This document shows positions 8,291 to 12,991 of a stretch of 22,129 nucleotides of DNA, in pieces (position 1 is the stretch's first letter; each line of letters opens with the position of its first letter). Where the stretch lies: positions 1 through 22,129 of IMG/VR virus record IMGVR_UViG_2526164668_000016; one strand, given 5' to 3'. The notes under the pieces are model-generated. The model worked only from the letters and a program-made list of their open reading frames with translations. It had not been told where the DNA came from and did no database searches. The position numbers and the translations under genes were made by a program. Origin of the DNA: a virus (Duplodnaviria; Heunggongvirae; Uroviricota; Caudoviricetes).

Positions 8291-8971
8291 TTATGAAGCC
8301 CGGGCAATAGGCCCACCAGTTAACAGCCACATCGGATCGCAACCAAGCGCATTAGCCAGTGGAATGATCTGGCTTGCGGGGACTTCGCAGATACCGCACT
8401 CCCAGTCGTTTATGGGGTCGTTGTAGGTGTGAATCATGCGTGCCAGGTCTGCTTCTGTCAGTCCAACTTTTTTACGTGCGGCTTCTATACGTGTGCCAAT
8501 GCTTTCCTCCTGGATGTCTGGCTGATTTACGGTAACAGCAGCAGCGCTATTTTTTTCACTCAGCAGAGAAAGAGGATCGCATCCCAGGACATTTGCCATG
8601 GGGATTAGCATGCTGATGGTTGGTTCGTATTCTCCACTCTCCCATTGCAGGATAATCTCTTCGTCAAGATCGAGCAGTCTGGCCAGTTCGGTGGTCGTCA
8701 AACCGCAGGCTTCACGTTGGGTGCTAAGGTTAACCATGTATTCAGGCTGTTTTTCAGGAGCAATATCTTGTCTTGAATAAAAAATTGCGTTTTTTACTTC
8801 GAAGGCGTAATCAGTGGCCAAAGCAACTATGGTATCGCCAATTTCACAGTATTCATGGTTATTTGATGTAGCTAATAAATATCCAGCTTCAAAAAGAACG
8901 GCGGTATTTTTTAGCGCATCCAGTGGGTGCATGGAAAAGCCATTAAAAGTCAGAGTCGGTTTTGCCCTCAT
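8291..8971 (-). CDS. tandem helix-turn-helix (XRE/Cro-C1-type) DNA-binding protein with an extra 75-aa N-terminal domain
   Basis: Two HTH-like segments (…REACGLTTTELARLLDLDEEIILQWESGEYEPTISMLIPMANVLGCDPLSLL… and …AARKKVGLTEADLARMIHTYNDPINDWECGICEVPASQIIPLANALGCDPMWLL…). ATG at 8971 with GGAG RBS, about 27 bp downstream of the OL-like dyad repeats. Confidence 0.6.
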   Translation of the reverse strand: MRAKPTLTFNGFSMHPLDALKNTAVLFEAGYLLATSNNHEYCEIGDTIVALATDYAFEVKNAIFYSRQDIAPEKQPEYMVNLSTQREACGLTTTELARLLDLDEEIILQWESGEYEPTISMLIPMANVLGCDPLSLLSEKNSAAAVTVNQPDIQEESIGTRIEAARKKVGLTEADLARMIHTYNDPINDWECGICEVPASQIIPLANALGCDPMWLLTGGPIARAS

Positions 8972-9102: not shown

Positions 9103-9849
9103 TCAAAGCAAAACTGAGTACCAGAATAAACGCCCGATAATATCAACCTTATCAATACTGGTTTCTTCATCTGGGTATTCGTCACTGTTGTAACTGCGGA
9201 TAATCAATTTTCCACCTGGTCTTCTGTGTAGTTGTTTAATGCGCTTTAGTTGTCCGCCACAACCATCATCTTGTCCAATAGCATACAACTTACCATCGAC
9301 AATTCTTTTGTTGTTGGTGTCAATAGCTACGGTCGTTCCATCAGGGATTATAGGCTCCATACTGTTACCAGTCGCCGGAAAACATAGCACTCCACTTCCG
9401 TCAGAGTTTGCGCCGATCCGACGAAGGGTAGCTTTTGAAAACCTAAGTTTTAATCCATTATGATCTTCGCTAATCACTTTCCCAGTACCACACGCAAACT
9501 CAATATCTTTAAGAAAAGGGACTTCAACCTCATCATCACTTAGAGGCGTGTGCTCATCCCACGACTCTATCTTCCCCCATTCGGATTTTGGTGGAATAGA
9601 TGGTTTCTTGTTCTCTGCCCTCATAGAACCTACACCAGAACTTAACCATTCCGGTGTAACACCGAGAGCATTAGCGAGATCGACAATTTTCGTTGTTCCT
9701 CTTGCATTCCCCGATGCTATTCGCCAAATGGTCGGTTGAGCCATGTTTGCTGCCTTAGCCAACTGAGCTTGGCTCATTCCCATTTCGTACATTGCAAAGT
9801 TGAGCCTATCTGCAAGGGTTCTCAACATGCTCATTTGTGATTTCGACAT
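9103..9849 (-). CDS. cI: CI-type prophage repressor (N-terminal HTH, C-terminal S24 LexA-like autopeptidase domain)
   Basis: N-terminal HTH (…MSQAQLAKAANMAQPTIWRIASG…); C-terminal domain with candidate catalytic Ser (GNSMEP) and Lys (QLKRIKQL); GGAGG RBS; divergent from the cro-like gene. Confidence 0.9.
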   Translation of the reverse strand: MSKSQMSMLRTLADRLNFAMYEMGMSQAQLAKAANMAQPTIWRIASGNARGTTKIVDLANALGVTPEWLSSGVGSMRAENKKPSIPPKSEWGKIESWDEHTPLSDDEVEVPFLKDIEFACGTGKVISEDHNGLKLRFSKATLRRIGANSDGSGVLCFPATGNSMEPIIPDGTTVAIDTNNKRIVDGKLYAIGQDDGCGGQLKRIKQLHRRPGGKLIIRSYNSDEYPDEETSIDKVDIIGRLFWYSVLL

Positions 9850-9963
9850 AAATATAGCCTCCGCTATTACATTGTAGATGCGTTCTATAAGTGTGTCTAT
9901 TGCATGGTGGAATAGGCGTTGCTATTATTTTTTGATAGAAAAAGCAATTGTTAGGTGTGTTTT
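9850..9963. promoter_or_regulatory. cI-cro divergent switch region (OR-like) with ATAG-N6-CTAT dyads
   Basis: ATAGCCTCCGCTAT (9853-9866, overlapping the cI RBS) and ATAGGCGTTGCTAT (9912-9925), plus further CTAT/ATAG half-sites. Must contain the divergent promoters for cI and cro. Confidence 0.5.
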
Positions 9964-10215
9964 ATGAAATCAGCGATTGAGAAAGCAATAGATATTGCAG
10001 GGGGCGTAAATGCATTAGCTCGCGCCGTTGGGGTCAAACAGCCATCTGTTTCCCGATGGAGAAAGATTGGACTTGTAGGGGTGGAGCATGTTCCAGACGT
10101 TTCTGCCGTAACAGGGATTCCCGCTCATGAGCTTAGGCCAGATAAGCCAAAACTTTTCCCACACCCAAGCTTAGCGCACACAGAAGATGGAGTGTGCGAA
10201 GGAGATAAACAGTGA
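9964..10215 (+). CDS. Cro-like / YdaS-family HTH regulator
   Basis: 83 aa, MKSAIEKAIDIAGGVNALARAVGVKQPSVSRWRK…; AGGTG RBS; divergent from cI. Confidence 0.75.
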   Translation: MKSAIEKAIDIAGGVNALARAVGVKQPSVSRWRKIGLVGVEHVPDVSAVTGIPAHELRPDKPKLFPHPSLAHTEDGVCEGDKQ

Positions 10216-10919
10216 ACACCGCAATTTTTAACGATAAAGCATCCATGACCAGCGTTGAGATCGCAGAGCTGGTGGGTAGTCAGCACTCAGATGTTAAACG
10301 TAGTATCGAACGCCTGGTTGCTAAAAACATCATCCGGAAACCGCCAATGGCTGTTTCCGAGAAAATCAATAACTTAGGTTTTAAAGTTCAATATGAGCAT
10401 TACCTGTTTGAAGGAGAACAAGGTAAGCGCGACAGTATCATTGTCGTCGCACAGCTCTGTCCTGAATTCACTGCTCGCCTGGTAGATCGTTGGCGCGAAC
10501 TGGAAGAGCAGGTGCGCAAACCAATGAGCGAAATCGAAATGGTTGCCGCGATGGCTCTTGAAGCAGTTCGTCAGCAAAAACGCCTCGACAAGATGGAAGA
10601 AAAAGTTAGCCACGTTGCCGAAACTGTCGAACAAATCAAAAGAGGCACCATACGCGATGGTTATGCAGGATACCGTCAGCTGGTGGCGAAAACAGGTATG
10701 TCAGATGCGAAATGCCGCAATCTGGTGAACGATTATCAAATTCCTACAGACACCCATGAGTTCATGACGCCGGACGGATTGTTGTCACGTCGCGCAATTG
10801 TTGCCGTGGAACCTTTTATGGCTGCTTTTTATCGGGTTATGGAGGAAGCAGAACCGCGAGGGACTCGCTGGTATCACCCGAAAATGGGGTTATTTCAGGT
10901 TATTGGTTGGCAGCGGTGA
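10212..10919 (+). CDS. phage regulatory protein, Rha/antirepressor-like
   Basis: GTG start overlapping the cro stop (GTGA) with GGAGA RBS; N-terminal MTSVEIAELVGSQHSDVKRSIERL resembles the Rha-family signature (S..IAE..GK.H.NVLRDI) as recalled. Confidence 0.55.
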   Translation: MNTAIFNDKASMTSVEIAELVGSQHSDVKRSIERLVAKNIIRKPPMAVSEKINNLGFKVQYEHYLFEGEQGKRDSIIVVAQLCPEFTARLVDRWRELEEQVRKPMSEIEMVAAMALEAVRQQKRLDKMEEKVSHVAETVEQIKRGTIRDGYAGYRQLVAKTGMSDAKCRNLVNDYQIPTDTHEFMTPDGLLSRRAIVAVEPFMAAFYRVMEEAEPRGTRWYHPKMGLFQVIGWQR

Positions 10920-10942
10920 AAAAAAGCCGGGAGTAACCCGGC
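10919..10942 (-). terminator. intrinsic terminator for leftward transcription (GC stem GCCGGG/CCCGGC plus T7 on the minus strand)
   Basis: Plus strand reads A7-GCCGGG-agtaa-CCCGGC; on the minus strand this is stem-loop followed by a U7 run. Confidence 0.45.
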
Positions 10943-11327
10943 TCACTCAACATCAATAACGGGGAGCTGTTTCGCATAAAACGGCTCCGAAACATCCAAG
11001 AACAGTTCTAAAGATATCAGCAGCTATATGATCATTTCAAGACCAAATATTGATTCTGCAATTTCGGGACGTTACACTGTCTCTGCACCTTATAAAGCGG
11101 GTGCCGGGGGTCGCAGCCCGGAATTGATCAAGGCGATATACGACGCGCCAGCGTCTTTTTTATCGTCTGCGCTCACGCACGCCAGAATTATGGTGGGCTG
11201 GGCAGGGGAGCCGAAAGGCTCGCCGGTTTCCTTGATCGCCGGTACTGCGAACCCTGTTCAGTTCACCACCCATGAGTTTCGCAGCTCCGGTGGTGGAAGT
11301 TTTTCACCGATCAAGGAGGCTGCCATC

Positions 11328-11690
11328 ATGGCTACAGTCCCAACTTCCCCATTCCTCAAAATCGAAGTCGTCAACGGCAAAGCTGTTATTTTCTCCCTGC
11401 ATGTTGCCTGCCACTTTAAGCGCATGCACCAGAACATCGTCGACAAAATCGAGTATCTGAACTGCTCGCGCGAATTTTTTACCCGCAACTTCATACCGGG
11501 TACTTACCACATCTATGGTGACTCCCTGCGTGGTTATTACATCACCCTTGATGGCCTGATGATGCTTCAGCTTGGGTTAAGTCTACGCACAATGCGGTAC
11601 TACGAGAGCTGCATTGGAGCATTCCATGAGGCTGAAACCAGCCTGAATCACACTGCTTTTCGCCGTAATCAATGGGAGGTACGCCCATGA
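11328..11690 (+). CDS. phage regulatory protein, Rha-family-like (120 aa)
   Basis: ATG at 11328 with strong GGAGG RBS; …AVIFSLHVACHFKRMHQNIVDKIEYL… fits the Rha-type motif. The longer frame from 11028 is probably not translated. Confidence 0.5.
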   Translation: MATVPTSPFLKIEVVNGKAVIFSLHVACHFKRMHQNIVDKIEYLNCSREFFTRNFIPGTYHIYGDSLRGYYITLDGLMMLQLGLSLRTMRYYESCIGAFHEAETSLNHTAFRRNQWEVRP

Positions 11691-11881
11691 TTAGTTACGA
11701 AATCATCATCTCCACTACGGAATACAGAAACGATGTATCAGTTCGCACGGATGTATCTGTCTGGCACCGTCGCTATAAATCCAGAAAAACGGCGGAACTG
11801 AAAGCGGCAGAGATGTGTGAAACCATCTCAATGAAAGGTAGCCCGGTTAAATACGTAACTACGGCGGAGGTGCGTCCATGA
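11687..11881 (+). CDS. hypothetical small phage protein
   Basis: ATG at 11687 with GGGAGG RBS, overlapping the upstream stop (ATGA). Confidence 0.4.
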   Translation: MISYEIIISTTEYRNDVSVRTDVSVWHRRYKSRKTAELKAAEMCETISMKGSPVKYVTTAEVRP

Positions 11882-12111
11882 TCCGCTACATCGTTAATTC
11901 CCTGTATCACCGATACAACCGTTGCCCCCGTGTGGGGCAGTGGTTCGCCACCAGCAACGGTCACGTTCTGCGGGTTTGCCTGGTCAATACAGAAAGCCAG
12001 AAGGTTGTCTGCCAGGTTCAGGGACGTACTCATACCCTGAGTTATCCGCTGGTGGCTTTTCAGTCCGGGAAAATGTTTAAGCGCCTGGGAGGTGGCTATG
12101 CGTCCGTCTGA
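11878..12111 (+). CDS. hypothetical small phage protein
   Basis: ATG at 11878 with GGAGGTG RBS, overlapping the upstream stop. Confidence 0.4.
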   Translation: MIRYIVNSLYHRYNRCPRVGQWFATSNGHVLRVCLVNTESQKVVCQVQGRTHTLSYPLVAFQSGKMFKRLGGGYASV

Positions 12112-12991
12112 TCTTCTGCTCGATTTTGGGCATCCGGTTGCTTATTACCCTGGGCTCGTTAAATACATGGGAAGTCCGCACGCTGTTATTTTCTTTGGTC
12201 AGATTTTCTACTGGCAGGATAAAGCACATGCAGCGGAAGGCGTACATAAAACGCGTGAAGAGATACAACACGAAACCGGACTTACATTTGAACAACAGGC
12301 TGTAGCGCGTAAGCATCTTGTGTCCAGAGGCATTTTGGTTGAAACCAACAAGCGTCTTGAGCACAAAATGTTCTACCGTATAGATTGTGAGCGTCTTAAT
12401 GAAATTATCAATGAAAACAATCACTTTTCCCGAAATGGGGAAACCCGTTTTCGGGAAACTGTAAAACCCGATTTCGCGGAGGAGGGAAAGCCTTCACCGC
12501 GGACACGGGAAACCCCTCGCCGCGGAGAAGGGAAAACCAATTTCGATCTTACAGAGAATACAACAGAGATTACTTCAGAGAATACTACAGAGAGTAAAAA
12601 CACTATTGGCGCATCCGCTGACGCGTCTGCACCAGCACGTTCTGCCCGACAGGAATATTCACCGGAATTTGAACAGGCCTGGCAGGAATATCCCAAACGT
12701 GCTGGTGGTAATTCCAAGTCAGCAGCCTTCAAAGCCTGGAAAGCCCGTATCAGGGAAGGTGTGACACCCGAAACCATGCTCAACGGTGTGAAACGCTATG
12801 CCGCCTGGGTGCGTGTCTCAGGAAATACCGGCACCCAGTTCGTGAAGCAGGCATCGACGTTCTTTGGCCCCGATCGGCACTTTGACGAATCCTGGCAACA
12901 GTCAGCAGCTCCCGGAGGTGGGCGGGGCAAAAGCCTCCCGATCTCGGGATTCAGTGAACAGGACTACGGCTCAACGAACTTCAACTGGTGA
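12098..12991 (+). CDS. phage replication initiation protein (O-like / replisome organiser)
   Basis: ATG at 12098 with GGGAGG RBS; sits directly upstream of, and translationally coupled to, the DnaC-like loader; contains a basic/acidic linker with short repeats (ENTTEITSENTTES). Assignment by synteny. Confidence 0.55.
   Translation: MRPSDLLLDFGHPVAYYPGLVKYMGSPHAVIFFGQIFYWQDKAHAAEGVHKTREEIQHETGLTFEQQAVARKHLVSRGILVETNKRLEHKMFYRIDCERLNEIINENNHFSRNGETRFRETVKPDFAEEGKPSPRTRETPRRGEGKTNFDLTENTTEITSENTTESKNTIGASADASAPARSARQEYSPEFEQAWQEYPKRAGGNSKSAAFKAWKARIREGVTPETMLNGVKRYAAWVRVSGNTGTQFVKQASTFFGPDRHFDESWQQSAAPGGGRGKSLPISGFSEQDYGSTNFNW

Follow-up and report, generated by a model that had tools for sequence, protein, structure and literature searches.

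We analysed a window of 22,129 nucleotides (nt) from a virus of the class Caudoviricetes (IMG/VR record IMGVR_UViG_2526164668_000016, positions 1 to 22,129) and in it the interval at 10919–11327, which an earlier note on this DNA had placed between two Rha-like genes. Profile searches uphold that placement. The upstream gene (10212–10919, plus strand) encodes a Rha/Ant-like protein of 235 amino acids that matches Pfam Phage_pRha (E = 7e-8) and the anti-repressor Ant family PHROG 63 (E = 4.5e-48). The downstream gene (11328–11690, plus strand) encodes a Rha-like regulator of 120 amino acids that matches PHROG 995 and 518 and falls slightly below the Phage_pRha cut-off of 29.9 (27.8 bits, E = 4e-6). 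The right two-thirds of the interval, from about 11047 to 11327 on the plus strand, hold an IsrK-type leader RNA and, directly 3′ of it, a C4-type antisense RNA. We consider it highly probable (about 0.85) that these form an RNA immunity cassette of the P4 and P1 type, with the downstream Rha-like gene as its predicted regulated target.

An IsrK leader, a C4 RNA and their target sites

The whole window was searched against Rfam at gathering thresholds and the search was repeated locally; the two plus-strand matches in the interval stood above chance (E = 1e-11 for isrK and 3e-17 for C4). The first is a 77-nt leader of the IsrK or seqA type (11085–11161; RF01394, 57.6 bits against a gathering score of 50). 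It opens with a hairpin at 11085–11104, continues with a second hairpin at 11104–11121 that carries the b1 site in its loop (11111–11116) and with an unpaired a1 site (11125–11133), and ends in an intrinsic terminator recovered by a terminator scan (11142–11155, followed by six U residues at 11156–11161). Assignment of the leader to the Rfam type c4-a1b1 was rejected, at 17.2 bits against a gathering score of 46.7; it is of the IsrK type. The same tandem pair is annotated in the Shiga toxin 2 (Stx2) phage F039 and in APSE-7, where the a′ and b′ sites are marked as well, and is present in P4. A scan of the interval for transfer RNA (tRNA) and transfer-messenger RNA genes found none.

A constitutive promoter for the module is predicted at 11050–11078 on the plus strand, with a −35 box TTGATT (11050–11055), a spacer of 17 nt and a −10 box TACACT (11073–11078), from which transcription would start near 11085. 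Loci that are otherwise unrelated resemble one another from about 11047 onward, and both hexamers, which lie at the left edge of the module, are conserved. The predicted −10 box ends 6 nt 5′ of the first Rfam isrK position, the same distance as in P4, and we predict that TTGATT-17-TACACT is the promoter of the cassette and the counterpart of PLE in P4 and of PisrK in Gifsy-1.

The second match, C4 or CI-type antisense RNA (11186–11273, plus strand), covers the full model length of RF01695 (1–87) at 85.0 bits against a gathering score of 45. A basal stem of 17 base pairs (11191–11207 with 11252–11268) encloses two hairpins. The first of these is the GAGCC-GAAA-GGCTC hairpin to which the earlier note had drawn attention, and it lies exactly where that note put it, at 11208–11221. 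The second (11222–11243) presents a′ in its loop (11227–11238), and b′ follows unpaired at 11245–11251. After the stem comes CCCA (11269–11272), which is compatible with the CCA-like tail of an RNA released by RNase P; C4-type RNAs are freed by this enzyme in P1 and P4.

Relatives were gathered from viral contigs by a pattern in the second C4 hairpin, and the covariation check that the earlier note had proposed could thus be run on 36 homologous sequences. It supports the C4 stems: 98.6% of the cells are paired, both sides have changed in 14 of the 27 pairs, and none of 500 shuffles did as well. Cells in which both sides changed numbered 115, compared with 30.8 in shuffles, and controls in which the structure was slid along the alignment were 31–50% paired. 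Helix 3 is invariant partly because the loci were gathered with a pattern that lies inside it.

A second fold is available to the 3′ strand of the basal stem. The segment 11260–11268 can pair with GGTGGTGGA (11289–11297) in an alternative plus-strand hairpin (11260–11297) that holds the b2 site in its loop. This helix shows all nine pairs in 11 of 17 distinct combinations, with a mean of 8.0 for strands from the same locus and 6.2 for strands crossed between loci, and compensatory changes such as ATCGCC/GGCGAT and CATCACC/GGTGATG occur within it. It may be part of a switch and could be the equivalent of the alternative structures reported from Gifsy-1. We had also tried the b2 hairpin as a plus-strand terminator (11260–11305, with a GUUUUU tail) and rejected it; the T-run is lost in relatives and the alternative helix fits better.

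The two recognition sites of C4 have counterparts just ahead of the Rha-like gene. The a′ site, UUUCCUUGAUCG (11227–11238), is complementary to a2, CGAUCAAGGAGG (11308–11319), which reads CGATCAAGGAGG on the plus strand and includes the Shine–Dalgarno sequence AAGGAGG (11313–11319), 8 nt 5′ of the start codon ATG 11328. The predicted a′/a2 duplex has 13 base pairs and a free energy of −20.1 kcal/mol, equalled by none of 500 shuffled queries. Likewise, b′ (CUGCGAA, 11245–11251) is complementary at 7 of 7 positions in the window to b2, TTCGCAG (UUCGCAG in the RNA), at 11278–11284.

Comparison of about 30 distinct relatives indicates that these pairings are maintained. Those with full flanks have 12 a′ heptamers and 10 b′ heptamers in 21 combinations. 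Read at a fixed offset, without searching, a′ and a2 from the same locus agree at a mean of 5.24 of 7 positions, against 2.21 for cross-type pairs, and b′ and b2 agree at a mean of 6.55 of 7, perfectly in 26 of 29 cases, against 3.18 for cross-type pairs. Every one of the 12 a′ types has a matching a2 of its own; where the leader is of the IsrK type, a1 and b1 track a′ and b′ too. Irrespective of the downstream gene, a2 is always followed by GG and by an ATG 8–10 nt further on. We regard this as strong evidence that the object under selection is an RNA that would recognize the ribosome-binding site of the gene at 11328.

Identical a and b codes occur beside unrelated upstream and downstream genes (among loci L004 to L125), and the a′ types combine independently with the b′ types, which suggests that immunity specificity is exchanged in modules, with possible cross-immunity between different elements. 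In two of the relatives, L036 (pattern matches at oriented positions 1577 and 2889) and L073 (about 3301), IsrK–C4 modules stand in tandem with different a′/b′ specificities; in L073 a single uninterrupted frame passes through both modules, which are separated by a truncated copy of the start of the Rha-like gene.

These results alter the picture that the earlier note had drawn. It had described the whole interval as GC-rich, which holds for 11085–11327 (58% GC) but not for 10920–11084 (42%; 48% in the window as a whole). It had also proposed an antisense or small RNA, and the region is indeed structured and encodes a regulatory RNA that acts by antisense pairing; the structured, GC-rich part, however, is IsrK and C4 on the plus strand and not a leftward transcript.

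The left edge of the interval

The left third of the interval (10919–11046) and the leftward terminator that it contains are separate from the IsrK–C4 cassette. The terminator (10919–10944, minus strand) was correctly recognized in the earlier note: a stem of GCCGGG (10926–10931) with CCCGGC (10937–10942), extendable to 10924–10944 and closed by a loop at 10932–10936, precedes seven T on the minus strand, which would give U7 from 10925 to 10919 and appear as A7 on the plus strand. Its tail adjoins the TGA stop of the upstream Rha/Ant-like gene (10917–10919). The terminator scan of 9800–12200 returned five sites, against 2.1 ± 1.7 in shuffles, which is not significant by itself; what speaks for this site is its quality and the fact that it is conserved in the one diverged variant. 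In that SE11-type variant, which is about 70–80% identical, the stem and A7 are kept and the loop differs. In another natural variant (L189) one stem pair becomes G–U, on the minus strand only.

One explanation of the left edge, to which we give somewhat less than an even chance, is a leftward small RNA (sRNA) of about 85 nt that would run from about 11004 to 10919 on the minus strand, start from an extended −10 promoter and act either like lambda oop or as a trans-acting, Hfq-type sRNA. Its 5′ end would be a conserved segment (10992–11004 on the plus strand), followed by a hairpin at 10963–10988 and then by the terminator with its strong U7 tail. At a suitable distance lies a minus-strand promoter-like site (11011–11040), with a −35 box TTGAAA (11040–11035), an 18-nt spacer, a TGn extension and a −10 box TATCTT (11016–11011); it matches the consensus at 9 of 12 positions with the TG present, and is known as a consensus match only. 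This site stands back-to-back with the IsrK promoter, so that a transcript from it would stop at the leftward terminator after about 85 nt. In the sole diverged variant (L125, TTGAAA-18-TGnTATTTT) the hexamers, the spacer length, TGn, the 13-nt 5′ segment and the terminator stem survive, whereas the sequence of the spacer, the loop and the inner hairpin differ. Both versions fold better than shuffles, ours at −30 kcal/mol with a z score of −3.2 and the variant at −4.6, with a similar outline of inner hairpin and terminator.

Against such an sRNA, only two sequence types, plus point variants, were seen in a BLAST search of 5426 Escherichia coli genomes and among the matches listed when viral contigs were scanned with a 14-mer. 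In two natural variants, moreover, the inner hairpin is weaker as read on the minus strand, though not as read on the plus strand. No Rfam family matches the candidate: the best hit, sroD, reaches 24.5 bits against a gathering score of 50 and covers the terminator part only. Further minus-strand matches from a permissive search (SorX, SorY and PrrF, as well as sroD) were below threshold and driven by the terminator, and we rejected them as chance. Nor are potential targets of the conserved 13-mer enriched in the window, with 11 matches at up to three mismatches where 7.9 are expected.

The earlier note had likened this edge to the oop arrangement of lambda. The likeness is one of position and outline: as with oop, a short leftward unit with a promoter-like site and a strong terminator would follow the second gene of the pR operon and precede the replication genes. 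It does not extend to overlap or sequence. The oop terminator lies about 25–50 nt inside cII (locus positions 303–330, with cII ending at 354), so that oop is antisense to coding sequence, whereas the candidate here would reach only the stop codon of the upstream gene and would have no overlap of the cII type. Pairwise alignment of the leftward unit to the lambda oop region gave scattered matches and no convincing similarity.

The other explanation takes the hairpin and T-run as a mere barrier against stray antisense transcription into the cro/cI immunity region, with no RNA gene behind it; this too is possible, with the odds leaning slightly against it. A leftward hairpin with an A-rich run recurs right after the homologous Rha gene in two related prophages (L127 and L129), where the next gene follows at once, and in three BLAST matches (H62–H64) the terminator accompanies the 3′ end of the Rha gene with the rest of the interval absent. 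The different hairpin in the two prophages, GGCCGG-CAGAGAAAA-CCGGCC after an A-rich run (935–975), is followed by a BRO-N gene that starts 53 nt past the Rha stop. A gap of 53 nt leaves no room for a dedicated promoter, so the leftward terminator may be an insulator, which counts against the sRNA. A pure barrier role accounts neither for the conservation of the promoter-like site nor for that of the 13-mer where an RNA would be expected to begin.

Overall, we give a real leftward RNA at the left edge rather less than even odds. On the boldest reading, which is likewise somewhat less likely than not, it would be an undescribed sRNA of about 85 nt from a promoter back-to-back with that of IsrK; an sRNA in the oop position and a P4-type cassette would then together form a divergent control unit made of RNA only, set between the immunity region and the genes for replication. 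In one relative (L128, from E. coli ETEC4090) an insertion sequence (IS) element with an integrase core domain gene sits at about 1072–1130, immediately left of the −35 box of the IsrK promoter; there the leftward unit is intact and the IsrK–C4 module is parted from its usual neighbour.

The open reading frame through the RNA module

According to the earlier note, the interval was a non-coding gap whose only long frame had no usable start. That second point does not hold: ATG 11028 opens an open reading frame (ORF) of 220 amino acids (11028–11690, plus strand) that contains the Rha-like gene in frame, is named 'ash family protein' in RefSeq and is the counterpart of Eta (ORF199) in P4. RefSeq thereby annotates a conserved protein-coding gene across the gap, which the note had said would refute an RNA there, and because of this annotation we tested the ORF for a coding signature.

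Codons 1–100 of this ORF correspond to translated promoter, IsrK, C4 and target-site sequence. The Pfam match to PF10554 (Phage_ASH; E = 2.2e-16, 60.7 bits) takes in residues 16–99, or 11073–11324, a span of about 250 nt that essentially coincides with the RNA module, starting at its −10 box and reaching a2. Across the same 12–13 loci, substitutions at codon positions 1, 2 and 3 number 48, 52 and 43 in 11028–11327, against 20, 22 and 59 in 11328–11690. An excess at third positions, the mark of purifying selection on a protein, thus appears only in 11328–11690 and not in the Ash/Eta part. The Ash amino-acid sequence is also rewritten wherever the a/b specificity differs. In more distant relatives (L053, L076 and L027/L063) the RNA is kept while the frame has stops or another frame is used. 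The gap is therefore not free of annotated coding sequence, being nested in a conserved ORF much as in eta and kil of P4, but the way its substitutions are distributed speaks against selection on a protein.

In two pairs of loci (L010/L101 and L040/L104) the gene after a2 encodes a small Icd/Kil-like protein (MATTP...F(T/I)W...) out of the Ash frame. The frame shift comes from a 1-nt deletion between the Shine–Dalgarno sequence and ATG, and the Ash frame is still open for more than 100 codons as an alternative frame. A conserved AUG (11190–11192, in the AUGGUGG with which the C4 basal stem opens) lies in the Ash frame, and its position matches the start of Gifsy-1 orf45 at +107; an RNase P cut at the 5′ end of C4 would coincide with this codon.

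The history of PF10554 bears on its meaning. Its member in P4 is the obsolete 137-amino-acid 'cI ORF', which overlaps the CI RNA (locus L130, 7888–8584), whereas the epsilon derepression protein of P4 matches PF25738. A 2021 preprint on P4-like satellites used PF10554 as a marker for epsilon (10.1101/2021.03.30.437493). Given the overlap with the CI RNA, the profile would detect the immunity RNA region and not epsilon. More than 200 complete E. coli genomes contain the left-hand segment, and nearly all of the matches listed name the module ORF 'ash family protein'. Our comparisons show that this annotation covers the RNA module and that PF10554, to judge by its pattern of change, is the translation of the IsrK–C4–target module without protein-like selection.

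It is accordingly improbable that the interval is simply the 5′ part of a protein gene, encoding the N-terminal Ash domain of a 220-amino-acid Ash–Rha regulator with incidental RNA matches: its open frame into the Rha-like gene in most enterobacterial homologues, the naming of that ORF by PGAP in many genomes, the strong PF10554 match, the in-frame ATGA found 6–7 codons 5′ of the −35 box in several lambdoid contexts (once after the strong Shine–Dalgarno sequence GGGAGGTG) and the reported translation of the long form Eta in P4 (PMC10111431) are set against even codon-position substitutions, wholesale amino-acid change with a/b specificity, loss of the frame in relatives that retain the RNA, a promoter and an intrinsic terminator inside the supposed domain, a Pfam match coextensive with the RNA module, and a search of the 100-residue Ash translation against solved structures that gave only a chance match to titin (E = 0.02). 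A protein gene as the sole explanation is unlikely; translation as a by-product or as an anti-termination device is compatible with the RNA cassette.

Known relatives and a possible mode of action

The cassette is already known in kind. Its two RNAs belong to Rfam families matched at gathering level, the pair is annotated in some GenBank records, and such pairs were discussed for lambdoid prophages in 2013 and 2016; ours is an ordinary member of a described family. Barquist et al. equated IsrK with seqA and C4 with CI and noted that lambdoid prophages carry such pairs (PMC3632133).

The closest parallel is the immunity region of P4 (PLE, seqA, cI/CI RNA and seqC, with nested eta and kil), in which both Rfam families recur, ordered and spaced as here. 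In P4 the C4 match (8420–8507) is the CI RNA and the isrK match (8615–8692) is seqA. One frame runs there from an ATG that overlaps the orf88 stop through seqA, CI and an a2-type site into a 65-amino-acid protein; we take this continuous frame and protein to be the nested eta and kil genes. In both elements a2 lies over the Shine–Dalgarno sequence of a short gene that starts MAT..., a long ORF runs through promoter, seqA and CI in frame with that gene, and both long ORFs match PF10554. The short gene, however, encodes a Kil/Icd-like protein in P4 and the 120-amino-acid Rha-like regulator here, in the position of kil or of P1 icd. P4 is a satellite, whereas the host of our cassette is a lambdoid prophage with CI/Cro and replication genes of the O, DnaC and DnaB type. 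The long ORF of P4 overlaps orf88 through ATGA, whereas here it is uncoupled from the upstream gene, and the a′/b′ specificities differ, with CUGUGAA and UCUCAC-type sites in P4.

In P4, according to PMC10111431, eta contains an internal constitutive promoter, seqA and CI, and Kil is a truncated Eta. Interactions between CI and seqA terminate the constitutive transcript, from which CI RNA is derived; read-through allows translation of Kil, whereas full-length Eta is made only from an upstream promoter, and its translation prevents termination (PMC10111431).

A second relative is the isrK–orf45–anrP locus of Gifsy-1 in Salmonella, likewise in a lambdoid prophage and likewise with a next gene of antirepressor or regulator type under translational control. 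There IsrK is a terminated sRNA, and the read-through form carries a processed downstream RNA, STnc1160, that is complementary to IsrK; the IsrK locus controls translation of the next gene (PMC4825925). Presumably orf45 overlaps a C4 match there. The frame that crosses the C4 region of Gifsy-1 closes after 45 codons as an ORF of its own, coupled to anrP, whereas here it runs on into the gene, and IsrK is described there as an activator, with C4-type antisense repression unmentioned (PMC4825925).

The immI operon of P1 and P7 (c4–icd–ant) contains the same C4 Rfam family. In P1, a′ and b′ reportedly pair with a2 and b2 at the ribosome-binding site of the first downstream gene. On this mechanism the two systems share a two-site antisense logic, a duplicate upstream a1/b1 and the use of the a and b sites as determinants of specificity. 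They differ in that our locus has an IsrK-type leader with its own terminator and regulates a Rha-like gene, not icd or ant. C4 of P1 is said to block binding of the 30S subunit and to cause Rho-dependent polarity on downstream genes.

On these parallels, the cassette may work as follows. Transcription from the constitutive promoter would start near 11085, as homology suggests, and most transcripts would end at the terminator (11142–11161) as the 77-nt IsrK bearing b1 and a1. Those that read through would hold C4, from which, by analogy with P1 and P4, a 5′ cut by RNase P would yield a stable RNA of about 80 nt. Its a′ loop and the adjacent unpaired b′ would then pair with a2 and b2 on the mRNA of its own operon. 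Because a2 covers the Shine–Dalgarno sequence of ATG 11328, binding of C4 would block translation of the Rha-like regulator, in the P1 manner by keeping the 30S subunit from 11313–11330. Loss of translation would in turn probably lead to Rho-dependent termination ahead of the replication genes, again as in P1. The a1 and b1 sites of IsrK may titrate C4 or pair with it in cis, as work on Gifsy-1 and P4 suggests. Translation of the long form from pR transcripts could plausibly override the block, as in P4.

Several observations weigh against this account. The predicted promoter of the module matches the consensus at only 8 of 12 positions and falls under the scanner threshold. The b′/b2 duplex, taken on its own, is no better than shuffles (70 of 500), and the decoy copies within IsrK are imperfect, at 8 of 9 positions for a1 and 6 of 7 for b1. 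The start codon of the long form, ATG 11028, has no visible Shine–Dalgarno sequence and is without a coupling partner in the window. The Ash frame is nevertheless open, through into the downstream gene, in most enterobacterial relatives, so that translation through the region may matter. Promoter use, processing by RNase P and the part played by Rho are carried over by analogy. The outcomes themselves differ among the three studied relatives: P1 shows a translation block with polarity, P4 shows termination, and in Gifsy-1 IsrK acts as an activator. Sequence alone does not decide which of these dominates here.

The wider setting is a lambdoid early-right operon. A CI-type repressor gene (9103–9849, minus strand) and a Cro/YdaS-like gene (9955–10215) precede the upstream Rha/Ant-like gene, and 3′ of the interval two small ORFs are followed by genes for an O-like initiator, a DnaC-like loader and a DnaB-like helicase. 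By BLAST the region is matched in 393 phage records, mostly of Stx-converting phages. The late region of the window holds tRNA-Met (18849–18924), tRNA-Arg (19021–19097), STnc100 (19867–20060, plus strand; 142.7 bits) and, on the minus strand, the anti-GcvB sRNA AgvB (20062–20123; 88.7 bits), a set of RNA genes typical of Stx-type lambdoid prophages.

Several papers regard 'Ash' as a protein domain of unknown function, and at this locus PF10554 is, on our reading, a translated RNA module. In this lambdoid prophage, whose late region has features like those of Stx phages, the cassette comes after cI/cro and before the replication genes. At this position an RNA layer may gate the Rha-type regulator and replication, and hence induction. 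The a/b 'specificity codes' are shared and reshuffled among otherwise unrelated elements, which bears on the cross-immunity of prophages and satellites.

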